Shown in pieces: positions 12,734 through 59,833 of a stretch of 64,000 nucleotides of DNA. The notes under the pieces are model-generated. The model was not told the DNA's origin, searched no databases, and saw nothing but the letters and a program-made list of their open reading frames with translations. Origin of the DNA: a virus; IMG/VR virus record IMGVR_UViG_3300045988_109767, positions 1 to 64,000 of that record; one strand, given 5' to 3'. Every line of letters begins with the position of its first letter. The first letter of the stretch is position 1. Position numbers and translations under genes: made by a program.

Positions 12734-12853
12734 AACCTTTCATATTTTCTTCTTAAGTCTTTACCTGCCCAGATATCATGATCTTTTTCTTGTTCTTGAT
12801 AAATCTTTGCTGCTTTTTCAATATCTTCTCTTTTCATAATTTTATACTTTAAT

Positions 12854-13108
12854 CTAACCTCCAATAAAATCATCGGGAGTTATATATCCTACTGATTCCA
12901 TACGGTCTATAATCTCATTCGCATTCATTTCTGAACCGTTCCATTCAAGTATGATTTCATTTCCTGAAGCCATGCTCAAATTAGGCTCATTATCTCTAAA
13001 TCCTGAGAAAGCAAGATGTCCCCAAATGGATTGCAGTGCAAGGTCCGCTTCGTTTTGTTTGTTTTCTGCTTTCTTTATGGCATTTTTTAATTTTTTATTC
13101 ATTATCAC
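12854..13108 (-). CDS. hypothetical protein
   Basis: 84-aa ORF. Confidence 0.4.
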   Translation of the reverse strand: MIMNKKLKNAIKKAENKQNEADLALQSIWGHLAFSGFRDNEPNLSMASGNEIILEWNGSEMNANEIIDRMESVGYITPDDFIGG

Positions 13109-13364
13109 CCCCCCCCTTTTTTTCTTCTTCGCATGGGAGCAAGTCCTCGATGTATGCCCAGCGCATATAATGATCCTTTTCTGAAAGTTCTTCCCATGGC
13201 TTGCTCTTGGTTAAATAGACCAAATCATAAGCACCGTCAATATCCTCCACAATGAGCAGCTTCCCTTTGTCTGGCTTTTCTCTTGCATCGTGCCACACGC
13301 TGTTAATGCGCCATTCTGCACCAGCTTTAAAAAGAGGAACAGCATATTCTATATCTTGTTTCAT
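13095..13364 (-). CDS. hypothetical protein
   Basis: 89-aa ORF. Confidence 0.4.
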   Translation of the reverse strand: MKQDIEYAVPLFKAGAEWRINSVWHDAREKPDKGKLLIVEDIDGAYDLVYLTKSKPWEELSEKDHYMRWAYIEDLLPCEEEKKGGGDNE

Positions 13365-13654: not shown

Positions 13655-13807
13655 ATTTTATTAAAGTTTATCTATTATTTTGTCACCCATTTCCTGCCAT
13701 TCATCACTCACGCTTATAACCAATCCTATGACAGTGAATGATAATAACAATGTAAAAATAAGTCATAACAGAAAGCAGATAAAAACACATACATACCTCA
13801 TGATTTT

Positions 13808-14554
13808 TTAGTTGTTAGATAAAAGCAAAATCGGTTCATTTGACTCCGCAATTGCTTTTATTTGTTCTGGATTGATAAAACTCTTAACTTGTTCGCTTAT
13901 ATTACAAATGGACTTGATCATATCAACGAATAATTTCGAGGTACATTCGTTACACTCCACTTCCATTACCTGTTTATGTCTATTGTATGATATGCTCGTT
14001 ACACAATTCAGCCAGTGCGCATAAGTTCCTTTTTCTGTATTTAACCTGTCGTATTCTACTTTTGTCTCTCCATTTCCATATTCAATTACTCTTTTTAGAA
14101 ATGGTTTTGCATAAATACTAAAACCGAAAGGTTGGGGGTTTAAGGCATCTAAACTAGAAGTTCCATCCCTCCATTTTCCATTCTCATCATTTCCTGTCCA
14201 TTCCTTAGAGGGGTTAGGGACAATATTTCCGTTTTTGTCATATGAAAACGTGCAATTCGTTTCCAGTTGATACTTAATAACAGGCGCTTCTTCTACTATT
14301 TTATAACTCAAACATCTCTTCAGAACTTCCCTGATTTGACTTTCCAAATCAGAAAGTGCTATACTATTGAAATATCCTTCGTTGCCTAATCTGTTTGTAG
14401 GTAATTTGATCCTATAAGAATGAATCTTATCCACATCTTCTTTTGATAAAGTAGTGGTAAACACCCCTTCTTTGGTGACATTCACTTTAGCAGTTACAGA
14501 TAAACTGTTGTTAGCATTCTTTTCCGTTATATTTAGTGTTGTTAATGCTGCCAT
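13808..14554 (-). CDS. hypothetical protein
   Basis: 248-aa ORF. Confidence 0.5.
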   Translation of the reverse strand: MAALTTLNITEKNANNSLSVTAKVNVTKEGVFTTTLSKEDVDKIHSYRIKLPTNRLGNEGYFNSIALSDLESQIREVLKRCLSYKIVEEAPVIKYQLETNCTFSYDKNGNIVPNPSKEWTGNDENGKWRDGTSSLDALNPQPFGFSIYAKPFLKRVIEYGNGETKVEYDRLNTEKGTYAHWLNCVTSISYNRHKQVMEVECNECTSKLFVDMIKSICNISEQVKSFINPEQIKAIAESNEPILLLSNN

Positions 14555-14572
14555 AATCAGATCTTTTTAAAA

Positions 14573-23203: not shown

Positions 23204-23617
23204 TTAAAAGAAACTCCAACAAAATGTTACGATAAATTCTCCCATTCCGTATTCAGTAAGTTGCTTAAACGATTCTATCCCATTGCAATAATAAAAAACA
23301 TCATCATTGTCATCATCGTTAATGCCCAATGATAGTTTTATTGTCATTCTTTTATCGTTTCCTGTCTCTTTCCACACAATCTGACATTCTACGTATTCAG
23401 GTTCCTTACCTGTTTTTTCTACAAATTCATGAAATCTTAAATCAATTTCATATTTGACTGCTTCAACGTTAGATATTATTACCTCGTTTTCACAATCCCC
23501 GCAAATAGCATGCGCGAAAGATCCATCAAAATAATCTATTATTTTTCCAGTATTCGGATTTACTATGGCTTCACAGACAACATTTGTTCCACCACATCTT
23601 GTACATATATATCCCAT
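23204..23617 (-). CDS. zinc-ribbon protein (CTRCGG...CGDC)
   Basis: N-terminal CxxC...CxxC. Confidence 0.45.
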   Translation of the reverse strand: MGYICTRCGGTNVVCEAIVNPNTGKIIDYFDGSFAHAICGDCENEVIISNVEAVKYEIDLRFHEFVEKTGKEPEYVECQIVWKETGNDKRMTIKLSLGINDDDNDDVFYYCNGIESFKQLTEYGMGEFIVTFCWSFF

Positions 23618-23761
23618 AATTATCTGTTTTTAAAATGTTCAACAATTTCATCTACTGTAGCCTTACGCCACGCAAAGCGGGCCCCGTCTCCCCTGAACCG
23701 GAGCTCTTCGCACTTTACCCACCTTTCTCCTGTGGCGTCCGTTACTATCAGCCATTATAAC

Positions 23762-25042
23762 CTATTCTTCTAAGCCATTCTCTATCATAACTTCCTTTAT
23801 CAATTCATCTGTCTCCTCGTAACATCCCCAGCAAGAATCAACCTCTTCCCATTCTTCGCAATCTTCATCCTCTCTTGATTCGTCTTTGTATTTCTTGGTA
23901 AATGCTACCTTCTTTTCAAGAACGTACCCTTTTACATCTCCCCACATCCACATACCTATGGACTTTACCTCATTATCTATAATCTTGGCACAATCTTCTT
24001 TCCAGTCTCCTTCTTTGTTGCAGACTTCATTATCATATTTTTCTTTTGTAACGTATGCTATCCCTTTTATATAATCACCTTGATTATAACCCCTTGTTGA
24101 CCACTCTATGGCTACCACATCTTTCCCATATTTGGATATGATATCTAACAGGTTTTCATCATCCAGATCCTCTATTAATTCTCCTCTGCAATCAAAGTCC
24201 TTCAAATCACCTGGTGAAAACTCTTGACCTATATATGGACTTGTCTTATGCTTCAACTCCCATACATTGCCACCTCTGTTGTATGTGAATGAGATCCCAT
24301 TCGCTTCCCCTTTCTTTAAATATTTTACAATGTCTTTCTGTTCTATATGCTTCATTACAATAGCATCAATAACATCTCTAAGATTATGCTTGTTATCGTA
24401 GAAGAAAGTTTTCCAATTGCATTCATCATGCAATCGATGTGTATCTGAGTATTCAAAAAAGAATGACCCAAACAAACCCCAATTAGTTATAGGACATTCT
24501 GAATCACAGCAATAATACACTTTAATGCGATAATCGCCTACTTCTTTTGTTGTAATAAGATCGTCTTCCATGTCTTTATATTTTAAATAGTTCTTAATTT
24601 TTTCTTCGATAAATGCATCTATTTCATCATAGTATGATCCATCAAAATCACAATTCCCATATTCCTCTGCAAACTCTTTAGCCCACCCTTGAATGATGTC
24701 AAATGCCTCTTCCCTGCTACATTCTTTTAGTCCTGGTAGATACTCCACAGCTTCCACCGACATCTCTTGCAGATTTCGTAAGTAATTCAAACCTATGCTA
24801 TACGGTAGCTTGCCTACTTCTATACATACATAATGACCCTGTTTAAAGGTATCCTGTAAATCTTCAAGACTCTCTATCAATGACTCAGACTCATCATCTA
24901 CCCTCACCTTGTATAACTCAAAATCTTCATTTTCTGCTGACACCCATATCTTGTAGGCTTTTTCGTTGGACAATATTTTCCAAACAAATCCGTCGCTGAA
25001 TACAATTAGGCTACCTGTTACTATCGTATTTCCCATAATCAC
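23762..25042 (-). CDS. hypothetical acidic protein
   Basis: 426-aa ORF. Confidence 0.5.
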   Translation of the reverse strand: MIMGNTIVTGSLIVFSDGFVWKILSNEKAYKIWVSAENEDFELYKVRVDDESESLIESLEDLQDTFKQGHYVCIEVGKLPYSIGLNYLRNLQEMSVEAVEYLPGLKECSREEAFDIIQGWAKEFAEEYGNCDFDGSYYDEIDAFIEEKIKNYLKYKDMEDDLITTKEVGDYRIKVYYCCDSECPITNWGLFGSFFFEYSDTHRLHDECNWKTFFYDNKHNLRDVIDAIVMKHIEQKDIVKYLKKGEANGISFTYNRGGNVWELKHKTSPYIGQEFSPGDLKDFDCRGELIEDLDDENLLDIISKYGKDVVAIEWSTRGYNQGDYIKGIAYVTKEKYDNEVCNKEGDWKEDCAKIIDNEVKSIGMWMWGDVKGYVLEKKVAFTKKYKDESREDEDCEEWEEVDSCWGCYEETDELIKEVMIENGLEE

Positions 25043-25045
25043 TTT

Positions 25046-25360
25046 CTAATCTGTTACTCTGTAATAATAATCAAGTTCTTCTCCCTTAAAGTTGTTCATG
25101 GCATACTCGTCAGTTTCTCGCCATAACCGGTCATACAAAGCTGCCAGTTTACGATTGCTTTCATAATGTTGCCAGATTTTATGATTCAATACAAGCGTTA
25201 ATTCCGTGAAGAACTTATAATCGTCTTTCCATTCATTGAACGCACGTCTGTAGGTATCTTTGACACCTGCTATACCATACTTGTCGGCTATACTAAAATC
25301 TTCCCAAAAGGTAGTCAGTAGGTTATAGCCCACTTCTTTCATAAATTCTTTGAATGTCAT
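25046..25360 (-). CDS. hypothetical protein
   Basis: 104-aa ORF. Confidence 0.45.
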   Translation of the reverse strand: MTFKEFMKEVGYNLLTTFWEDFSIADKYGIAGVKDTYRRAFNEWKDDYKFFTELTLVLNHKIWQHYESNRKLAALYDRLWRETDEYAMNNFKGEELDYYYRVTD

Positions 25361-25376
25361 AATCTAATTGTTATCC

Positions 25377-26135
25377 TTATTTCTTCCAACACCAAAAATT
25401 TATAGCATATTTATTACGAAGAGTAATGAAAATTTTTTCTCCACTTACCTGAGCAAGAACTTTCTCGCCAAGTATCCTTTCAAGAAGAGGTGCGTATTTT
25501 GCGTCAACAGGGAGATCTCTTGTCTCCGTTATTGGCTTGTACGGAAAAAATATCCTGTTCCCATATACCATTTTTAAATATAATCCATCCGGCGATTCAA
25601 ATACGTCTTTCTTTGTTTGTCTCATCCCGGATTGTATTACCTTCTCTTTTAACGATCGGATATATGATTTCTCATTGACCTCATTTATCTTATTAATTAC
25701 CTCTTTCTTAAATTCGTAATACTCATATATACGACCTTTATAATCAGCCACCATTTCTTCAACCTTGCTTTTGGATGCCCATAGCCCGCAATACACATAG
25801 CAATCCAATAATCTATCTACTGAAGAAATGCCAATAAGCATCATCTCAGAAAAAGAATTTCCTTCTTTTTCTAATTCTTCTCTGGCTCTATCTGTCACCG
25901 CATCCCACCATTGTCCTTCACACTTCTCTACCTCTCCATTATCAAGTACGATATCGAACTTTCTGCCTCCGAAAGCTTCTCTTCGCTCATTTCTCTTTGC
26001 AAGGAAATCATAGAATATACCTCCTATCCTTCCAATAATGGTATCATCTCCGTACTTTGTGCTAATTTTATCAGGCATTTCGTCGAAGACAAGAAACTTC
26101 GATTTTCCTGATTCTACTAAGTATAATAGCTTCAT
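25377..26135 (-). CDS. hypothetical protein
   Basis: 252-aa ORF. Confidence 0.5.
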   Translation of the reverse strand: MKLLYLVESGKSKFLVFDEMPDKISTKYGDDTIIGRIGGIFYDFLAKRNERREAFGGRKFDIVLDNGEVEKCEGQWWDAVTDRAREELEKEGNSFSEMMLIGISSVDRLLDCYVYCGLWASKSKVEEMVADYKGRIYEYYEFKKEVINKINEVNEKSYIRSLKEKVIQSGMRQTKKDVFESPDGLYLKMVYGNRIFFPYKPITETRDLPVDAKYAPLLERILGEKVLAQVSGEKIFITLRNKYAINFWCWKK

Positions 26136-26146
26136 GATTTATCTCT

Positions 26147-26626
26147 TTAGATGTAAGTTATGCTGCCAACATTAATCTGCATTATATCGTTTTCCAGCGT
26201 AATGAAATTATTTTGTTTTATGGGTCCAAACATCAATCCATATACACTTACTGTATTAAACAGCCTAACAGTGTGAAAATCTTCATTTAGCTCTACCCTG
26301 TTTTTATCCCAATATCCCAAATCGTTGATAGTTGCCGGGAATCCTCCTACGTCGTTATACTTATAGTAATCGTTTTGATTAAAAACGATTCCCTTTATTA
26401 ACAGGTTCCCGATGCTTTTCATGTTGAATCCGGACAACGCGATCTGCTCTGAGATATAACTAATCAAACAGTTATGATACGTGTTTGGCTTATCTCCTCT
26501 CTCGTTAATAATTTTCTTCCATTTCTTCGTTAATGGAACCCTAATATCCATATATGTACCAAATACGACTATGTTAGGACATTCTCCTTCAAACTTCGTT
26601 AAATCTTCTACTCTCATAATTAACAA
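26147..26626 (-). CDS. hypothetical protein
   Basis: 159-aa ORF. Confidence 0.45.
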   Translation of the reverse strand: MLIMRVEDLTKFEGECPNIVVFGTYMDIRVPLTKKWKKIINERGDKPNTYHNCLISYISEQIALSGFNMKSIGNLLIKGIVFNQNDYYKYNDVGGFPATINDLGYWDKNRVELNEDFHTVRLFNTVSVYGLMFGPIKQNNFITLENDIMQINVGSITYI

Positions 26627-26719
26627 ACATTTGTATTGTTTTCGTTGTTCACTATCTGATTAATGTATGATCCTGGCCACGAACAGCCAGGCCGACCTCA
26701 TGGCAGGGCAGGCGCCGCC

Positions 26720-26917
26720 TCACTCTGGCTGTTCCGCCCATTCCCTGTACCCTACATTAAAACCAATAGGATCATACCTTTTGATCATAGTGCCATAATT
26801 CTCTCTACCGCAATACCTGTTCTTTCCTCCAATGATCCATGCCTCATCGTCTCTATCTGGAGATATTGAGTTAAGATACTTTTCATAATCCTTTCTGCTC
26901 TTTTTATTTATATCCAT
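26720..26917 (-). CDS. hypothetical protein
   Basis: 65-aa ORF; preceded by a GC-rich stretch 26663-26720. Confidence 0.3.
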   Translation of the reverse strand: MDINKKSRKDYEKYLNSISPDRDDEAWIIGGKNRYCGRENYGTMIKRYDPIGFNVGYREWAEQPE

Positions 26918-27507
26918 ATTCCACTATATTCCACTATATTTATGTTATCAAATTTTTCTTTTATAATATCCAAGACTCCGTACTCGTTTGTTATCATAAC
27001 ATGCTTTCCTGGCTTCATTCTCCACAAATTAAAATACCTTGTCACATTCATAGTGGCATTAAATAATGATATTTCATATCTTGTGTTTCCATTTTTATCA
27101 CGCCCTATGTTTTTAATATAACATATGTCTGGCTTGTATTTGAAATAATTAAAAAGCCTATACCAGCCTTTCCCATAACATGTTTCACGATTCCATATTC
27201 CAGCAAGCTTCCTATATCCCCTTACCGGTATTTTCTCTATTTCTTTTGGTACGATTTCAATATACTTTCCTTCTCCGATTGGTATAGTCATATTACCTGC
27301 CTCTTCCGTACAAAAGTATTCTATTTCAGATGCCATATCTTTATATACATAGAACCGGTATAGGTTCCCGTCAGGGTCTACCCGATCCATATAGTATAAT
27401 ATCACTTTGTCTACTTCTATTCTTATTTTCTCCATCTTTGTCCTCCTTCCTTGAATAAAAAAAACGACACCTATCTTCGCAGACCAGTGCCGGCAACTAA
27501 CTTGCAT
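26908..27507 (-). CDS. hypothetical protein
   Basis: 199-aa ORF. Confidence 0.45.
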   Translation of the reverse strand: MQVSCRHWSAKIGVVFFIQGRRTKMEKIRIEVDKVILYYMDRVDPDGNLYRFYVYKDMASEIEYFCTEEAGNMTIPIGEGKYIEIVPKEIEKIPVRGYRKLAGIWNRETCYGKGWYRLFNYFKYKPDICYIKNIGRDKNGNTRYEISLFNATMNVTRYFNLWRMKPGKHVMITNEYGVLDIIKEKFDNINIVEYSGIWI

Positions 27508-52333: not shown

Positions 52334-52841
52334 TTTTGATTCAGATATAAAGCATCTTATTTCTTATTACAACCATCTACTGTCTGAGCAGGATAAGGTG
52401 GGAGAGGATATGGAAGAGCTAACTAAGGATATTATTAGGAAGAAGGAAGAGGAAAATGATATAGAGTTGGAAGACTTTATTGATTTGGAAGAAAAGTCGT
52501 TTATGACCAACTTGTATCAACAAGAGATAATGAAAGTATCTTCTTCTGTCAAGACCGTCTACAGGTTATCTATTAACGCCGGTCATGATCTTAATATAGA
52601 TAATGACAGCAAGAAGGTTCTTGACATGATAGTAAACGACGGAGAATCGGATTTTATTATGTACGTTGATAATAATACTGATTCTGTTGCGTTCAAGGAT
52701 GAATTTGTTGAGGAAGGAATAAAAAACATGTGTAAGTATCGTGTTGATCCATCTTCTCTTGAAGACAGGTTTAATATGCTTAAGTCTCAGTATGAGGCTT
52801 TTTTAAAAATAGTTAACAATGAAAGCAAGAAAGCCGACTAA
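52314..52841 (+). CDS. hypothetical acidic protein
   Basis: 175-aa ORF. Confidence 0.45.
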   Translation: MIMKKIDFDSDIKHLISYYNHLLSEQDKVGEDMEELTKDIIRKKEEENDIELEDFIDLEEKSFMTNLYQQEIMKVSSSVKTVYRLSINAGHDLNIDNDSKKVLDMIVNDGESDFIMYVDNNTDSVAFKDEFVEEGIKNMCKYRVDPSSLEDRFNMLKSQYEAFLKIVNNESKKAD

Positions 52842-53157
52842 CGATGATGTTTCTTACGTAGATCGGAAACTTCTTGTGCTAAGGGATCAGATAGATAAGG
52901 CTGAACGTTATCTATCTGAAAATCCTTGGGATAAAATAGAAGATTCCGATAAGAGGGAGAAAGAATTTAGGTTTCAAAAGAGCTTGTCTGATAGCTTAAT
53001 GCAATGGACTGAATCTTATATTAAGATGTGTGGAATAATGGATGTCTATAATCAGCTTGAGGCTGCCAAAAACAAGAAAAGCCTAAAAGGAGGACAAACA
53101 GTATCAGGTATTCAGTCTTTTGTTAAGAATGAAGCTAAGAACAAGCTCGATAAATAG
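52819..53157 (+). CDS. hypothetical protein immediately upstream of terL (the small terminase subunit usually sits here; no motif support)
   Basis: 112-aa ORF; synteny argument only. Confidence 0.4.
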   Translation: MKARKPTNDDVSYVDRKLLVLRDQIDKAERYLSENPWDKIEDSDKREKEFRFQKSLSDSLMQWTESYIKMCGIMDVYNQLEAAKNKKSLKGGQTVSGIQSFVKNEAKNKLDK

Positions 53158-53164
53158 TTTTGTC

Positions 53165-56100
53165 ATGAATATTAACAGTAAAGAACTTTATATAAATATG
53201 GGTAACGATATTCCGTTATGGAATGACCTTTATTCTTATGAAGAGCAAGACAATGATGTCAAGCAATTCTGGGAGAATGAGGCTATGAAACTCCTTAACG
53301 GTGTTACCATAAATGGGGTATTTATCCATCCTTGGCTATACTGGCATATCAATTTCTGGAAGATGATGATTGACGTAGGAGATGATCGTATTCCTGGAAA
53401 TTCGCAGCTTCGTGATAATGAATGGATGTTTGCCGAATTTCTAAAGCAGGCTGAAGAAGAGAATAAAGGAATATTCATGTTCGGGTGCCGTCGTTTTGGA
53501 AAAGCCCTTCTTGATTCTGAGATACTTTATCTTGAGGACCGGGAAAAGATGATAGGAAATATCGTTGTAGGGGATAAGATATATGACGATAAAGGGAATT
53601 TGGTAGAGGTCGTAGGTGTTTATCCCCAAGGAAAAGTAACTACCTACAGAGTCGTATTCGAAGACGGTCGTAACGTTATTTGCTGCGGTAATCATCAATG
53701 GCGCGTCAATCATGGAGGAAAATGGCATGTTAGGAGTCTTAGATCCATAGCCGGATTAGATTATAAGAGTATGTCTATTCCAGTAGGTGAGGCCCTGAAC
53801 TACCCTACGGCAAAGCTGCCGGTTCCTCCGTCAGCCTACGCCTCGATGCTGGCGGCTTATCTCGGTGGCTATGGTGGGGATATGTTTTTTGATAAATACG
53901 TTTGTAAGAAGTTTTTAAGATCGTCCATAGATCAAAAGAAAGATTTTATAGAAAACTTCATTCGTTCTTTCAGAAACGTAGTAACCGGAGAAGAAGAGCT
54001 TATGTTGTCTCATATTGATATGGATGTCATAAATTTTGTACAACGTATGTTTTGGGCTTCAGGTTGGTATGCTAAATTGGAGGGGAACAAACTTATACTA
54101 TCAAGGAATCGTAAGGAATTAAAAATAAGATCCATATCGATATACGGTAAGGAGCATGCCACTTGTATAACCGTTGATAATGATTCTCATTTATTTTTGA
54201 CCACCAATTACATCGTTACTCATAATACGGCCATAATGAGTTCTCTTCTGGCCCGTAATGCTACAATGACGTACAATTTGACGCATAATGTTATTGGAGC
54301 AAGTAAAGAAGACCTTGCCAATATGGGAGAGTATCTTGAGTTTGGACTTGATAATCTTCCTCCTTATCTTACTATAAACAGGACTGGTAACGACTGGACT
54401 AAAGAAGTTGTTTTAGGTACAAGAAACATCAATAATCAACGTGATGTTCATGCCAGAATAAGAATCACCAACGTTGATGATGGAAAGACACGAGGCTCAT
54501 TGAAGACCGCAGGCGGAACTCCATATACGTCTATATATGATGAGGTAGGTAAATTCCCGGTGCTTGGGGCATGGCTTGCCGGTAGGCCGGCTCATATGAT
54601 GCATGGTAGAATGAGGGGCGTTTGTTTGATGGCTGGATGTTGTTGTGCTGGTACAATAGTGTACAAATCAAACGGAGAACCGTGTAGGATAGAGGATTTA
54701 AAACAAGAAGATGGAATAATAGGATTCGATAATATATCATCAAAAGCTGTAAGTCAAGACATAACATGGATGAAACCCCCTGCCGAGAAAGAGTGTTATA
54801 GAATAACAACAAAAAGAGGAAGGGTACTTGAATGTAGTGGGGATCATCCCATATTGACTGTTGTAAAGAAAAGGAAGGGTAAATTTAGGTACTTTGGATC
54901 TGATTTTAGAAGGGCTGATTCTCTTAGAGTTGGACGTAAAATATGTGTATCAGATGGTGTGGATATATGGGGAGATAAAAAAATGTTTGATCCATACCTT
55001 GTTGGCATTCTAATAGGGGATGGGAGCTATGGTTTTGATAAGACTCCTATTGTGTCTACCAGTGATGATGAGGTGTATGATTATATACGATCTAAATATG
55101 AGTGTTGTATAGAGAAACAGTATAAGACTAAGGACGGAAAAGATTATAGGGAAATAAGAATAAAAGGTATATGCCATGAGTTAAGGGAACTTGGTATATA
55201 TGGTCAGACTAAAAAAAACAAAACACTTCCTTTAAATATACATTCATATAGAAGAGAGGATGTTATTATGATGATTAGGGGGTATTTTGATGCTGATGCT
55301 ACTTTTTATTCTAATAACAATAATAGGGATCATCGTATAAGTTTAGGATCTTGTAATAGGCATCTTCTTGAAGAAGTAAAGGATGTTCTTTTTAAATTTG
55401 GAATACATAGTACTATTTCTTATAGCCCATCTAAAAATCCAGCAGATAGATCAATTATTCTTGATTCATATGTATGTAATATATTGGATAAATTATCCAT
55501 GCTTAAATATTGTGATATAATTGGAACAGATATAGGATATAGAAGAGAGAAACTTGATTCTATAAGGAAATTCGGTTCTAATTTTAGCACATTTGGATCT
55601 TTTAGGTCAAAATATTTAGATGGAGTGATAATAGAAAGGATAGATAAGATAGAGTATATAGGAATTAAGCCTGTTTACAACCTCACTGCATCAGATACTC
55701 ACACTTATATAGCAAATGGTATTATAACTCATAACACTGGCGGTAATGTAGAAAAGTCTCAAGATGCACAGAAAATCATGAACTCTCCGGACGAATATGG
55801 ATTTATTATAATGAATTATGATATTCTAAATAAGAGAGTTATTAAACCAACATGGCGTATATGTAAATCTGGATGCTTTGTTCCGGCCCAGATGTCTCAT
55901 GCGTATGAAAAGAAAGAAACGACTCTTGATAAGTATCTTGGAGTAGAGAATGCTCCCGGTCTTAAGAAGATAAAAATAAAAGTTTCAGACTTTGATAAAA
56001 ATACTGGAATAATAAAATCACGTCTTGACGAACTTGTCAAAAAGGATAGGGCTTTATACGTCCAGGAACGAATGGCATTCCCTTTGTCTATAGATGATTG

Positions 56101-57031
56101 TTTCCTTAATACGAACGTAAATAGGTTCCCTGTAGAAGATGCGTTGAAGCACAAAAGCCGTCTTCTTGAAGAAGGTAGGCCTGGTAAAACAGTGGATATT
56201 TATCAGATAGACGGCATGAAAATGGGGTATAATTTTAGTGATAAGCAGCTTGCTGATTATCCGTTTCAAGGTGGTAACATAGATTCTCCTGTTGTTATAT
56301 ATGAGGATCCACCAGAAGAAGGAGGTGTTTTTGATTACACTTATGTTTCATCGCTTGACCCCTATAAATCTGACAAGGCTGATACTGATTCTGTTGGTTC
56401 GTTTTATGTACTTAAAAGATATGTAAAAATCAACGATCCATTTGCTTATTGCATAGTAGCATCATACGCATCACGTCCTCCATCTTCCGATGATTTTTGT
56501 AGGAATTGTGAAATACTTCAAGAAGCGTATGGGGCCAAGTGTCTTATGGAGAATGCCGACCGAATGTATGAATTTTATCTTACGAGACGAAATAAGCAGC
56601 TTATGTTGCTGGAAGATGGCGAACGTCTTGCCGGTAAGATTATTCGTGCTGGCGCCCGTCAGAACAACAAGCTCGGTTTGGCTCCTACGGTTCCCAATCA
56701 GCGTATGCTTTTCAATACCGTTATTCAATATTGTTGGGAGGATGTTGTTGTTGGGTATGATGATGATGGTAATGAAATAACACAGAAAGGTATTTACCGT
56801 ATCCCTGATATAGAACTTCTTGATGAGATCATAGCCTTCGGCCCTGGGGCCAACACCGACCGTATCATAGCCTTCGGCCACGCTCTTCTTCTGGCTAAGT
56901 ATTATGATGATATGGGTTACATGCCTGAAAGTACGACTCAGAAGGAGAATCAAAAGAAGAGAGAGCGCAAGAAGATAGAACAGGTCAAAGGATTTACGGT
57001 AAGAAGACATAACCCTTATAAAATGAGGTGA
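53165..57031 (+). CDS. terL: terminase large subunit precursor with two in-frame inteins (exteins 53165-53503, 54227-54637, 55736-57031; about 681 aa after splicing)
   Basis: Walker A GCRRFGK|T is restored across intein 1; Walker B SIYDEVG; the C-terminal nuclease-domain region is acidic; lies directly upstream of the portal gene; ATG at 53165 preferred over 53120. Confidence 0.8.
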   Translation: MNINSKELYINMGNDIPLWNDLYSYEEQDNDVKQFWENEAMKLLNGVTINGVFIHPWLYWHINFWKMMIDVGDDRIPGNSQLRDNEWMFAEFLKQAEEENKGIFMFGCRRFGKALLDSEILYLEDREKMIGNIVVGDKIYDDKGNLVEVVGVYPQGKVTTYRVVFEDGRNVICCGNHQWRVNHGGKWHVRSLRSIAGLDYKSMSIPVGEALNYPTAKLPVPPSAYASMLAAYLGGYGGDMFFDKYVCKKFLRSSIDQKKDFIENFIRSFRNVVTGEEELMLSHIDMDVINFVQRMFWASGWYAKLEGNKLILSRNRKELKIRSISIYGKEHATCITVDNDSHLFLTTNYIVTHNTAIMSSLLARNATMTYNLTHNVIGASKEDLANMGEYLEFGLDNLPPYLTINRTGNDWTKEVVLGTRNINNQRDVHARIRITNVDDGKTRGSLKTAGGTPYTSIYDEVGKFPVLGAWLAGRPAHMMHGRMRGVCLMAGCCCAGTIVYKSNGEPCRIEDLKQEDGIIGFDNISSKAVSQDITWMKPPAEKECYRITTKRGRVLECSGDHPILTVVKKRKGKFRYFGSDFRRADSLRVGRKICVSDGVDIWGDKKMFDPYLVGILIGDGSYGFDKTPIVSTSDDEVYDYIRSKYECCIEKQYKTKDGKDYREIRIKGICHELRELGIYGQTKKNKTLPLNIHSYRREDVIMMIRGYFDADATFYSNNNNRDHRISLGSCNRHLLEEVKDVLFKFGIHSTISYSPSKNPADRSIILDSYVCNILDKLSMLKYCDIIGTDIGYRREKLDSIRKFGSNFSTFGSFRSKYLDGVIIERIDKIEYIGIKPVYNLTASDTHTYIANGIITHNTGGNVEKSQDAQKIMNSPDEYGFIIMNYDILNKRVIKPTWRICKSGCFVPAQMSHAYEKKETTLDKYLGVENAPGLKKIKIKVSDFDKNTGIIKSRLDELVKKDRALYVQERMAFPLSIDDCFLNTNVNRFPVEDALKHKSRLLEEGRPGKTVDIYQIDGMKMGYNFSDKQLADYPFQGGNIDSPVVIYEDPPEEGGVFDYTYVSSLDPYKSDKADTDSVGSFYVLKRYVKINDPFAYCIVASYASRPPSSDDFCRNCEILQEAYGAKCLMENADRMYEFYLTRRNKQLMLLEDGERLAGKIIRAGARQNNKLGLAPTVPNQRMLFNTVIQYCWEDVVVGYDDDGNEITQKGIYRIPDIELLDEIIAFGPGANTDRIIAFGHALLLAKYYDDMGYMPESTTQKENQKKRERKKIEQVKGFTVRRHNPYKMR
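53504..54226 (+). mobile_element. intein 1 (241 aa) in the TerL P-loop, starting with Ala instead of Cys/Ser (class-2-like), with a degenerate endonuclease region
   Basis: Block A ALLDSEILYLED; block B CGNHQW; blocks F/G ATCITVDNDSHLFLTTNYIVTHN followed by the +1 residue Thr; LAAYLGGYGGD is a LAGLIDADG remnant. Confidence 0.6.
54638..55735 (+). mobile_element. intein 2 (366 aa) with a double-motif LAGLIDADG homing endonuclease
   Basis: Block A CCCAGTIVYKSNGEPCRIEDL; block B SGDHPILT; LAGLIDADG motifs YLVGILIGDGSY and IRGYFDADATF; blocks F/G PVYNLTASDTHTYIANGIITHN followed by the +1 residue Thr. Confidence 0.75.
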
Positions 57032-57073
57032 CGAGAACAAATTCCTTATCTTTGTGAAAAATAGGATAATAGG

Positions 57074-59833
57074 ATGGAATATTTCAATAGAGATCAGGCT
57101 TTTCCGGCCAGAGGAGTATTTTCAGGTTTGCCGGTACAGGCGATACCTACCAAGAGAAAAACCAAGGAGTGGTTTAAAGCCACTATGGATTCTCTTGAAT
57201 TGATTGGTTTGAAGCAGCTTGATGAGAACCAGAAGTTCAAGGATTTTTATAGAATGATGGAAGGTAAGTTATCCTTTATGGAGCTGAAAGACGTAATTCC
57301 TTATCTTAAGGATGTTCAGTCTATAAGGGACAATGTAAATATTCCATCATTCTTACGTCATTATGATATAATAGGTACGATCGTAAACGCTTTTGTAGGA
57401 TGGTTGGGCAACCTTTCTGACAAGTATAATGTAGTTGGATTGGACGAATCTGAAGTGAATCAGTATTCTGCCACGAAGGAGAATCTCCTTCATAATTACA
57501 TTAAAGAGGAATTGGACAGAAGGATTAGGCAAGAATTGTTAAATAGGGGATTGGATCCGGATTATAATAATTTTGCAAGCGAAGAAGAAAAGCAGGCTTA
57601 TGCTCAACAGATACAAGAGGTGAAAGCATCTATGACCCCTCCTGAGATAGAGAATTTCATGAATACAAAATGGAAGACTGCCGAGGTTATATGGGGTTCT
57701 CATACGCTTGAAGCAGACAGGGGGCGTTTTTACATGGATGAGATAGACACCGAGAATTTCATCGACTATCTTCTTACCGGTCGTTGTTTTAGAAACTATC
57801 ATGTAGGATACGACTATTATAAGCCGGAGAGATGGTCTCCGTTGAATACGTTTTATTCTAAGACATTAGATAGCAAGTATCCGCAGTACGGTGATTATAT
57901 TGGTCGTGTTCATTATTATACTGCCAATGATATTATAGTAAGGTGGGGGCATCTTCTTACGGCAAAAGACAAGCAAAAGCTTATAGGAGGTGCTGATAAT
58001 TTCAATGGTACTTATAACAATGGTGATAATGGAAGCTATGTAAGTTTATCCAAATCGGCGAGTGTAGGGATGTTATATCAGAATAAGGTAATACCTTGGA
58101 AAGGATATAATGATTATGCTTCTATAAAAGCTTATGAGGATTATTACGGTATTCCAGCCGGCACATATACCGGATACGATAGTAATGGCAACGAATATCA
58201 CAGAACCAGATTCATGCCAAATTTAGAGCATGGTAATTATTATAACCGTGCCCAGAGTTTAAGCGACGAGCATGTTCGTAGTGATTTGTATCAGGTAACT
58301 GAATCATATTGGGTATCCCCGGCTCAGGTGTATGTAATTACCTACCAAACTGAAACCGGATTAGTAACTACCGAAATGGTAACCGACGAGCTTCTTCAGG
58401 ACTTTTTACAGGAAAATGGTATTAAGAAAATTACCAGAACCATGAGTAAGGGAATGGAGAACCCGGAGATTAATACCTATTTCGTAGATTACGTTCCACA
58501 GGTAAGGTACGGGGTTAAAATCAGTGGAGGTGCCCTCGCTCAGGACAACCTGTATCTGGATGGAGAACCTATTGATCACCAGATAAAAGGGGATAGCAAC
58601 ATCTATGACTTTGTTCTACCCGTTGCCGGATATATTGGTACTTCTATGGCTAACAGGATTCAGCCATATCAAATATTTTATAATTTCTCCATAAATCAGA
58701 TAAATAATATTCTTGAAAAGGAGATCGGTAAATTCTTCTTAGGAGATATAAATCTGGTTCCAAGTGAATACAAGGATTTGGGTGAAGATGTGGCTGATAT
58801 ATGGGCTAATCTTCTTGATGTAGCTAAGTCTGTAGGTGCTCTGACATTAGATACCTCATCTCAAAACACGAAAGGTGGTGTCCCTTTCAACCAGTTTGCT
58901 GTCTATGATTTGTCCCAGACAGAGCAACTTAAAACAAGAATGGAACTTGCTGAATGGTCGAGGATGAAATGTTTTGAAATGGTTGGTATCACGCCTCAAG
59001 TAATTAACGGCCCCAACAGGTATGAGACCGCCACCGGGGTCCAGCAGGGCGTTACAGCATCTATGTTACAAACACAGATATACTTTGATAACTTCGGTTA
59101 CTTCAAGAAACGCGCTTTGGATCTTCATCTGGCTGTTGCTCAACAATGTCAGGAAGAAGGAAAGGATATTTCTGTAATGTACACAAAAAGTGATCTTACC
59201 AGAGCGTTTTTATCTATAGGAACCGACGGTCTTAGTCTAAGGCATCTTGGTGTTCAGGCATTATCTAATTCCAAGAAAAGGGATGAGCTTGAGAAATTTA
59301 AAACTTTCATGTTGCAGCTAAATACAGCCGGAGGCGATATTTACGATCTTGCATCTATCTTCACATCAGATTCTATGGTGGAACTTATACAGAATGCAAG
59401 GAATACTCGCGCATACAACGAGCGTCAGATGCAGCAGCAACAACAGAATCAGATGCAGCTTAACCAGCAACAGATACAAGCTGAAGCTGCTGAGAAGGAT
59501 AAGCAACGTCAGCATGAACTTGCTTTAGAAGACAAGAAAGGTCAATACCGGATACTTCAAGAGAAGATCCAGGCGGCAGGCAGGGCGGCAGACGCCAAGA
59601 GTGACGCCACCTCCCTCAACTTCCTGGCTTCTGTTTCAGATCAGACCGTAAGGCAAGCTGATATAGAAAGTAAGGAAAGGATAGAGGATAAGAAAATTGA
59701 AAACGATTCCAAACTTCATGATGATGAAATGAGAATGAAAATGGAAGAGTTAAAATTAAAATCCAAAGAGCTTGCTCAACGAGCGAGGGAAGACGCCACT
59801 AAAAGGTATGTAGCCGGAATCAATAAGAATTAA
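57074..59833 (+). CDS. portal protein (large, crAss-like size class)
   Basis: 919-aa ORF directly downstream of terL; Gln-rich, coiled-coil acidic C-terminus; assigned by synteny and size only. Confidence 0.5.
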   Translation: MEYFNRDQAFPARGVFSGLPVQAIPTKRKTKEWFKATMDSLELIGLKQLDENQKFKDFYRMMEGKLSFMELKDVIPYLKDVQSIRDNVNIPSFLRHYDIIGTIVNAFVGWLGNLSDKYNVVGLDESEVNQYSATKENLLHNYIKEELDRRIRQELLNRGLDPDYNNFASEEEKQAYAQQIQEVKASMTPPEIENFMNTKWKTAEVIWGSHTLEADRGRFYMDEIDTENFIDYLLTGRCFRNYHVGYDYYKPERWSPLNTFYSKTLDSKYPQYGDYIGRVHYYTANDIIVRWGHLLTAKDKQKLIGGADNFNGTYNNGDNGSYVSLSKSASVGMLYQNKVIPWKGYNDYASIKAYEDYYGIPAGTYTGYDSNGNEYHRTRFMPNLEHGNYYNRAQSLSDEHVRSDLYQVTESYWVSPAQVYVITYQTETGLVTTEMVTDELLQDFLQENGIKKITRTMSKGMENPEINTYFVDYVPQVRYGVKISGGALAQDNLYLDGEPIDHQIKGDSNIYDFVLPVAGYIGTSMANRIQPYQIFYNFSINQINNILEKEIGKFFLGDINLVPSEYKDLGEDVADIWANLLDVAKSVGALTLDTSSQNTKGGVPFNQFAVYDLSQTEQLKTRMELAEWSRMKCFEMVGITPQVINGPNRYETATGVQQGVTASMLQTQIYFDNFGYFKKRALDLHLAVAQQCQEEGKDISVMYTKSDLTRAFLSIGTDGLSLRHLGVQALSNSKKRDELEKFKTFMLQLNTAGGDIYDLASIFTSDSMVELIQNARNTRAYNERQMQQQQQNQMQLNQQQIQAEAAEKDKQRQHELALEDKKGQYRILQEKIQAAGRAADAKSDATSLNFLASVSDQTVRQADIESKERIEDKKIENDSKLHDDEMRMKMEELKLKSKELAQRAREDATKRYVAGINKN

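Follow-up and report, generated by a model that had tools for sequence, protein, structure and literature searches.

How a phage obtains a working DNA-packaging ATPase from a large terminase subunit (TerL) gene whose ATPase motifs are split by inserted sequences is the question raised by one locus in the 64,000-nucleotide stretch of viral DNA analyzed here (positions 1 to 64,000 of the IMG/VR record IMGVR_UViG_3300045988_109767; hereafter, the window). The TerL precursor open reading frame (ORF), on the plus strand at 53165–57031, encodes 1288 amino acids (aa) plus a stop codon, corresponding to a protein of 147.5 kDa according to the ORF list and its translation. The best explanation, to which we assign a probability of about 0.88, is that this precursor must splice out two unrelated inteins, a class 3 intein (intein 1) and a mobile class 1 intein (intein 2), to yield a working 78-kDa packaging ATPase–nuclease. 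The closest deposited genome is that of phage csAssE-Sib (OR575929.1; 151 kb, human gut), a crAss-like phage of the Epsilon group for which PMC11054128 uses the name crAssE-Sib, and the window is collinear with it at 86–98% nucleotide identity.

The Interrupted Terminase Gene and Its Exteins

The first-pass annotation of the window had proposed a TerL interrupted by two inteins, the removal of which gives a continuous P-loop (GCRRFGK-T), an intact Walker B motif (IYDEVG), and a 681-aa protein; this proposal holds, and the segment boundaries and lengths it gave are matched exactly by the translation of the five segments. Extein 1 (53165–53503, plus strand, 113 aa), placed by translation and alignment, ends in the Walker A residues GCRRFGK, and extein 2 (54227–54637, plus strand, 137 aa, TAIMSS...VCLMAG), placed in the same manner, opens with the Walker A Thr, contains the Walker B sequence SIYDEVG, and terminates in LMAG, the first half of the C-motif. 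Extein 3 (55736–57031, plus strand, 431 aa plus stop), for which translation and alignment are complemented by the PHROG TerL family phrog_6681, opens with TGGNVEKS and comprises the second half of the C-motif, the remaining part of the ATPase, and the C-terminal domain. The P-loop of Walker A is therefore interrupted by insert 1, which separates its Lys from its Thr; insert 2 interrupts a motif that lies past Walker B (SIYDEVG) in the downstream direction and corresponds to the ATPase coupling C-motif (MAG/TGG; a slash marks an insertion point here and below). When 53504–54226 and 54638–55735 are removed, the joined exteins form a protein of 681 aa and 78.1 kDa in which GCRRFGKT, SIYDEVG, and MAGTGG are contiguous and in order, as in a genuine TerL, and in which the peptide across the second junction reads GVCLMAGTGGNVEK.

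The joined exteins align in one piece, across both junctions, to TerL proteins that lack inteins, including that of crAss001. The match to phrog_6681 extends as one stretch over residues 7–666 (E 7.5e-81), and tblastn searches with the joined exteins return single-piece matches to the intein-free TerLs of the Cellulophaga phages phi17:2 and phi4:1 (34% identity) and of the Leptolyngbya phage Lbo-JY46 (37% identity), as well as to the TerLs of crAss001 and many other Crassvirales (about 21% identity). A multiple alignment that sets the unspliced protein beside four homologs shows both inserts as clean gaps exactly at K/T and G/T: the first junction reads RRFGK/T in the window and RRLFK/S, RRLAK/T, and RGCAK/S in the homologs, and the second reads LMAG/TGG in the window and LSG/TGG, LVG/TGG, and LVG/TAA in the homologs. 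Extein continuity with clean gaps at both junctions is far beyond chance. Pfam Terminase_6N scores below threshold on TerL (14 bits; cut-off 22), and a sequence search of the spliced TerL against the PDB gives no match.

PHROG matches of the inserts (phrog_19299, phrog_15, and phrog_36964) could be read as ordinary TerL domains; this reading was rejected, as the match falls within the N-terminal part of the Hint domain, and the same or an overlapping stretch of intein 1 matches primase and helicase-loader families equally. The families matched by the Hint N-terminus of intein 1 are phrog_19299, phrog_15, phrog_36964, phrog_510, and phrog_50 (terminase, primase, and helicase loader), with E values down to 4e-13. 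These profiles evidently hold intein-bearing members, so that an intein can look like a part of its host protein. The candidates discarded in the course of the analysis (ALTERNATIVES) comprise this PHROG "terminase" reading of the inserts, an RNA intron, and a pseudogene or artifact.

The plus-strand frame is open from a TTG at 53120 to 57031, and the 1288 aa are counted from the ATG at 53165, which is the start in the gene calls of relatives and coincides with the onset of conservation in a divergent relative. The TTG at 53120, also in frame, could serve as a start as well but is not conserved. In the csAssE-Sib record (locus L001, position 5956), TerL is annotated from the upstream in-frame TTG and overlaps a putative small-terminase gene, which corresponds to window positions 52819–53157. 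The portal gene starts at 57074, adjoining the 3′ end of TerL.

Intein 1, a Predicted Class 3 Intein

Both inserts are inteins, as the first-pass annotation had held, but insert 1 is not a standard one, since it starts with Ala1 and carries the Trp/Cys/Thr triplet of class 3. Intein 1 (53504–54226, plus strand, 241 aa, 27.5 kDa, ALLDSE...YIVTHN) has Ala at position 1 (53504–53506) and no Cys, Ser, or Thr nucleophile there, and Ala1 is found in the window and in all five homologs that cover the junction. As homologs read GK/T or GK/S, the boundary of the intein is unambiguous, and with Ala1 at the start of the insert, the standard initiation of splicing is not possible. Class 3 inteins are defined by the lack of a position-1 nucleophile together with Trp at B12, Cys at F4, and Thr at G5 (PMC5050341). 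The corresponding residues of intein 1 are Trp66 (53699–53701), which lies two residues past the block B His (His64) in GRNVICCGNHQW; Cys221 of block F (54164–54166), within ATCITV; and Thr239 of the block G sequence Thr239–His240–Asn241 (54218–54226, plus strand), within VTHN/T, where the +1 residue is Thr.

Comparison with known structures points in the same direction. A phmmer search of intein 1 against the PDB matches the gp41-1 intein (E 1.5e-8) and also the class 3 DnaB inteins of M. smegmatis (6BS8) and M. chimaera (6RIX/6RIY), and the gp41-1 match improves to E 1.5e-11 when a profile of intein 1 and its homologs is used. Trp66, Cys221, and Thr239–His–Asn align column for column with those of the class 3 M. 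smegmatis DnaB intein (6BS8) and the WCT-engineered gp41-1 intein (6RIZ). The AlphaFold model of intein 1, built on a seven-sequence alignment, has a predicted local distance difference test (pLDDT) score of 84 and a predicted template modeling (pTM) score of 0.80, and a Foldseek search of this model against the PDB gives 44 matches at E ≤ 1e-3, every one of them to an intein or a Hint domain, identifying the fold as Hint. Only 13 relatives of intein 1 are present in a collection of 5.8 billion proteins, all of them at the same TerL site and in the same phage group. Ala1, Trp, Cys, Thr/Ser–His–Asn, and the +1 Thr are retained in homologs down to 41% identity, the G5 Thr being replaced by Ser in the most distant, 41%-identical copy. 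By these motifs and alignments, intein 1 is predicted to be a class 3 intein.

The central domain of intein 1 (53780–54124, plus strand, residues 93–207) consists of four helices and three strands, and this part of approximately 105 aa folds with confidence, reaching a pLDDT of 88 when modeled alone. It has no Pfam match and no recognizable endonuclease motifs, and it is a possible truncated LAGLIDADG remnant without catalytic motifs; its designation as a demonstrable LAGLIDADG remnant was set aside after the results of the Pfam, hhalign, and Foldseek comparisons, the last two of which are given below. Endonucleases encoded in an alternative frame or on the antisense strand have been described for actinophage inteins (bioRxiv 10.1101/2025.01.02.630785), and an endonuclease hidden in this way in intein 1 was likewise considered and rejected, as no alternative-frame or antisense ORF of at least 60 aa is found in the central region. 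The sole overlapping alternative ORF, of 95 aa on the minus strand, lies at the 5′ end of the intein.

Fixation and Constraint of Intein 1

Of 237 related IMG/VR loci, 80 were retrieved, and these, together with csAssE-Sib and the window, make up a set of 82 TerL alleles. Intein 1 is present in all 80 IMG/VR loci with the region covered, and also in the divergent sequence MT839152.1, the exteins of which are 54–58% identical to those of the window and the intein 41%. An intein-1-free allele was sought in the 2.9 million viral contigs of IMG/VR with a degenerate DNA pattern of the healed junction (RRFGK-TxIM), and none was found; the pattern gave two matches, both of them non-coding chance matches. 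Among all the relatives examined, intein 1 is fixed, and its inheritance is vertical, along with that of TerL.

The constraint on intein 1 equals that on its host. The ratio of nonsynonymous to synonymous polymorphism (pN/pS), given here and below as pooled pairwise estimates over related haplotypes rather than tree-based ones, is 0.060 for the whole of intein 1 and 0.062–0.064 for the conserved extein parts. Within the intein, the N-terminal splicing region gives 0.044, the centre 0.115, and the C-terminal region 0.081. Intein 1, its central domain included, is under purifying selection.

There is a small chance that intein 1 is a domesticated class 3 intein, the centre or splicing timing of which has acquired a function. 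Under such a reading, the intein can no longer spread, as no empty sites remain, and candidate roles would be the gating of terminase activation in an anaerobic host, or an action of the excised 27.5-kDa intein on DNA or against competing phages.

The MT839152.1 locus (4710–7250) encodes a divergent Epsilon-like TerL with intein 1 and an empty intein 2 site. This TerL is broken by frameshifts, its Walker B region did not align with that of the window in any frame, and the record is flagged UNVERIFIED.

Intein 2, a Predicted Class 1 Intein with a LAGLIDADG Endonuclease

Intein 2 (54638–55735, plus strand, 366 aa, 42.0 kDa, CCCAGTIVY...GIITHN) is of the class 1 type. Its key residues are Cys1 (54638–54640), Ser67 and His70 of block B, Asn348 of block F, and the terminal His365–Asn366 (55730–55735), and it is followed by a +1 Thr. 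The insert is precisely absent from orthologs, the host motif is restored upon its removal, the splicing blocks are present, and the Pfam profile Intein_splicing (PF14890) is matched at 48.1 bits, above the cut-off of 35.8, all of which would be expected of a canonical class 1 intein.

The LAGLIDADG homing endonuclease domain occupies about residues 106–330 (54953–55627, plus strand) and matches LAGLIDADG_3 (PF14528) at 49.2 bits (cut-off 22.5). Each of its two motifs contains an invariant Asp: motif 1, LVGILIGDG, carries Asp128 (55019–55021), and motif 2, IRGYFDADA, carries Asp220 (55295–55297). The frame is open in all 16 intact full copies (the window and 15 IMG/VR loci), and none of the catalytic residues, the two Asp residues included, varies among them. 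Across these 16 copies, pN/pS is 0.10 in the N-terminal splicing region, 0 in the C-terminal region, and 0.27 in the endonuclease. The endonuclease of intein 2 is apparently intact and is predicted to be active.

Homologs of intein 2 with 32–43% identity occupy the same G/T site of TerL in other crAss-like phages (Dulem viruses 41 and 42, cr53_1, P0018, and P0020). The flanks of the P0020 intein, ...AYG/CCCAGT...ITHN/TAGDKESDF, correspond to LVG/TAAESESDF in crAss001.

Full-length relatives of intein 2 (34–38% identity) are also found outside TerL, in glycine-rich proteins encoded on large phage-like contigs (P0019, P0021, P0023, P0024, P0025, and P0029), and the flanks in these hosts look alike (...GPWG/C...HN/[TSC]xxGG). 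The like flanks suggest that this intein family has moved between unrelated hosts with locally similar targets.

Population States of the Intein 2 Site

Among the alleles of this set with coverage of both insert regions, the intein 2 site is empty in 57, holds a full intein in 17 (a frameshifted copy among them), and holds a 144-aa mini-intein in six. It is precisely empty in csAssE-Sib and 56 IMG/VR loci (...G/TGGNVEKS); csAssE-Sib lacks insert 2 to the exact codon (...CSG/TGGNVEKS). The DNA at the insertion point of an empty allele of the window type reads GGCTGGA/ACTGGCGG, and in several empty alleles the ±45 nt flanking the site are the same as in occupied alleles.

The mini-intein is found at 4412–4843 in five loci (L070, L071, L076, L080, and L081) and at 4208–4639 in a sixth (L077), in each case at the site equivalent to window position 54638. 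Its first approximately 90 nt and last approximately 60 nt are 87–100% identical to the full intein, and the interior is not alignable in register (20–73% identity per 30-nt block); at the protein level, only the first 72 residues align to the full intein (76%). The mini-intein is therefore a mosaic rather than the product of a simple deletion of the endonuclease. The behavior of intein 2 is that of a mobile element that is active or was so until recently, as occupied, empty, and mini alleles coexist in near-identical genomes.

The exteins around the site form a divergent patch (54241–56143, plus strand, comprising 54241–54637 and 55736 to about 56143) that is 61–84% identical to csAssE-Sib, compared with about 97% for the rest of the TerL gene. 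The patch starts just 14 nt past the end of intein 1: mismatches to csAssE-Sib number 109 in the 411 positions of extein 2, and 21 in the 723 positions of intein 1. Intein 2, full or mini, is carried by 23 of the 61 alleles with a window-type patch and by none of the 19 with a Sib-type patch (Fisher p 9e-4, a value that is indicative only, as the samples are related). Simple co-conversion as the origin of the patch was rejected as stated, given 38 empty alleles with a window-type patch. What is left is the association itself, intein 2 never being found in a Sib-type patch among the alleles examined. The Sib-type allele differs at many bases beside the insertion point and may simply not be a substrate of the endonuclease.

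One full copy (L067) has a frameshift early in intein 2, at about position 4566, as a result of which the whole of extein 3 would be read in the wrong frame, and the sequence of an independent protein fragment (P0004) departs at almost the same point, following ...ITTKRG. This break could be a recurrent sequencing error or could mark defective genomes.

The Proposed Splicing Pathway

Both catalytic motifs of the ATPase are split in the precursor, and both splicing events are therefore needed for any packaging activity. In intein 1, Cys221 would attack the Lys113–Ala1 peptide bond to form a branched thioester, and the N-extein would then be transferred to the +1 Thr; the cyclization of Asn241 would release the intein, and an O-to-N shift would complete the peptide bond. 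In intein 2, an N-S acyl shift at Cys1 would be followed by transesterification to the +1 Thr and the cyclization of Asn366. The excised intein 2 is predicted to cleave intein-free alleles of the window type during co-infection, and to be copied into them by repair; the identical flanks of some occupied and empty alleles and the absence of intein 2 from the divergent Sib-type site speak indirectly for such cleavage. Indirect support for splicing comes from the gene itself, which is essential, open in dozens of independent assemblies, and under strong purifying selection.

Several points weigh against this reading. Splicing itself, its chemistry, and the endonuclease activity are inferred from sequence, and the class 3 assignment is drawn from motif positions and alignment to class 3 structures rather than from chemistry. 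Intein 1 scores below every Pfam intein threshold. Its centre, compared by hhalign with the endonuclease profile of intein 2, gives a probability of 0.1%, and the best Foldseek matches of the isolated centre, to the endonuclease domains of VMA inteins, are non-significant (E 0.09). The estimates of selection are pooled and pairwise, as described above. In intein 2, position 4 of block F is Asn instead of the usual Asp, position 7 of block B is Ser instead of Thr, and the +1 residue is Thr, which is a weaker nucleophile than Cys or Ser; with these three residues, the splicing of intein 2 could be slow.

Alternative Explanations

The two inteins might be conditional switches, responding for example to redox state or temperature and timing the activation of the terminase, rather than merely selfish passengers. 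This would explain why an intein that does not spread is under purifying selection, as intein 1 is fixed and even its centre has a pN/pS of 0.115. Both inteins also reside in catalytic motifs of the ATPase, cysteines cluster near their active sites (intein 2 opens with CCC, and block B of intein 1 contains ICCG), and TerL inteins have been discussed as possible modulators (PMC5050341). However, any fixed intein in an essential gene is expected to be under purifying selection, since a splicing defect is lethal, and insertion into a conserved catalytic motif is the usual outcome of target choice by homing endonucleases. Intein 2, moreover, is absent from 57 of the 82 related TerL alleles and is thus dispensable. 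We regard regulation by the inteins as unlikely.

Intein 1 might also splice by a route other than that of class 3, with the +1 residue attacking the N-terminal junction as in class 2 inteins of the KlbA type, or it might undergo cleavage only, with no block F thioester formed in either case. Ala1 would fit such a route, as it is common to class 2 and class 3 inteins, but class 2 inteins use Cys at the +1 position, where intein 1 has Thr. Intein 1 moreover has the Trp(B12)–Cys(F4)–Thr(G5) triplet, which is kept down to 41% identity and aligns with that of solved class 3 inteins. A class 2 assignment was rejected on the +1 residue and the triplet, and any route of this kind seems improbable.

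The reading of the inserts as dead, within a TerL pseudogene of a defective phage, or as assembly artifacts or RNA introns, to which the L067 frameshift and the divergence of P0004 at about the same place might point, is effectively refuted: the frame is continuous and open over 3.9 kb, both inserts keep the reading frame and show Hint folds, the two-intein arrangement is intact in 15 independent IMG/VR contigs, some of them 100% identical in protein, the catalytic residues are invariant with pN/pS far below 1, and a search of 52800–57300 against Rfam, group I and II introns included, gives no match at E ≤ 1.

The Rest of the Window

The first-pass annotation took the abundance of inteins as the mark of a lineage under heavy homing-endonuclease traffic. 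This is not borne out by the rest of the window, as no other intein or endonuclease was found in its 64 kb, although not every ORF was scanned. A tblastn search of the window with eight queries, namely the two inteins and six homologs, detects no further intein, and no endonuclease is annotated in the corresponding 64 kb of csAssE-Sib. Besides intein 2, the window segments absent from csAssE-Sib are 8331–8879, 12757–13290, 13670–14564, and 23391–27425, and Pfam searches of ten ORFs in these four segments return no match and nothing recognizable as an endonuclease. The segments hold minus-strand ORFs, and the 4-kb block encodes proteins of 426, 252, 199, 159, and 137 aa.

Implications

The main value of these observations lies in annotation and in a natural system for the intein life cycle. 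TerL is a marker gene for the classification of crAss-like phages, and as every Epsilon-type TerL examined carries at least one intein, trees and length comparisons made from unspliced sequences are affected. In nearly identical genomes, a single target site is found in four states: empty and permissive, empty and divergent, occupied by the full intein, and occupied by the mini-intein. Together with the adjoining intein 1, which is fixed and has no recognizable endonuclease, this site constitutes a compact natural system for the cycle of intein invasion, fixation, and decay, set in one of the most abundant phage groups of the human gut.

Comparison with Known Intein Systems

TerL is the most common intein host in mycobacteriophages, where the sites TerL1-a, between Lys and Thr of the P-loop, and TerL6-f, in the C-motif, are known (Kelley et al. 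2016, PMC5050341). Mycobacteriophage TerLs contain class 1 and class 3 inteins, several of which have been shown to splice and two of which cut intein-free alleles (PMC5050341), and surveys of actinophages have recorded 293 TerL inteins, with class 3 frequent in TerL (bioRxiv 10.1101/2025.01.02.630785). The inteins described here resemble those at TerL1-a and TerL6-f in their host protein and in their Walker A Lys/Thr and C-motif sites, which are matched by motif and not at the residue level. Unlike the mycobacteriophage inteins, they reside in an Epsilon-group crAss-like gut phage with a distantly related TerL, and both sites are filled in one protein. Their identity to phage inteins outside this TerL lineage is only about 25% among the matches listed. 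PI-SceI, the yeast VMA1 intein (PDB 1JVA and 1LWS), is 11–16% identical to intein 1; it is a class 1 intein with a full-size endonuclease, whereas what intein 1 retains is no more than about half a domain, without identifiable catalytic motifs.

Among crAss-like phages, the TerL of the Delta group typically contains an intein, and one TerL contains two (Yutin et al. 2021, PMC7886860). The latter, in the Delta-group cMAG OBYQ01000140 (two "Hint-Hop" inteins), is likewise a crAss-like TerL in three in-frame pieces with two inteins; it differs in belonging to another crAss family and in a gene that is also TAG-recoded, and PMC7886860 mentions no class 3 intein. In its main text, that paper describes inteins in the Delta and Zeta groups but none in Epsilon; the comparison made here covers the main text and not the epsilon genome map in Supplementary Fig. 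12. The word intein does not occur in the Epsilon-group paper PMC11054128, and a 2025 paper (PMC12386605) describes Epsilon genomes as lacking mobile elements, a statement that the present observations correct. In GenBank, homologs of intein 2 lie under TerL annotations in other crAss-like lineages (Dulem viruses 42 and 41, cr53_1, cr7_1, and cr131_1), mostly labeled plainly as "terminase large subunit" with no intein feature; full-length identity to intein 2 is 32–43% for Dulem virus 42, Dulem virus 41, and cr53_1. The sole Epsilon-group TerLs matched in that collection are those of csAssE-Sib and MT839152.1, both of which lack intein 2.

TerL inteins at these sites and a crAss-like TerL with two inteins have thus already been published, and the gene described here is a further example of a known arrangement. 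The present analysis adds that intein 1 is predicted to belong to class 3 and is fixed under constraint, that the intein 2 site is polymorphic with three states, and that intein 2 is associated with the divergent patch. The class 3 literature compared here concerns actinobacterial hosts and their phages, and with intein 1 a predicted member of this class is documented in a crAss-like phage of the gut.

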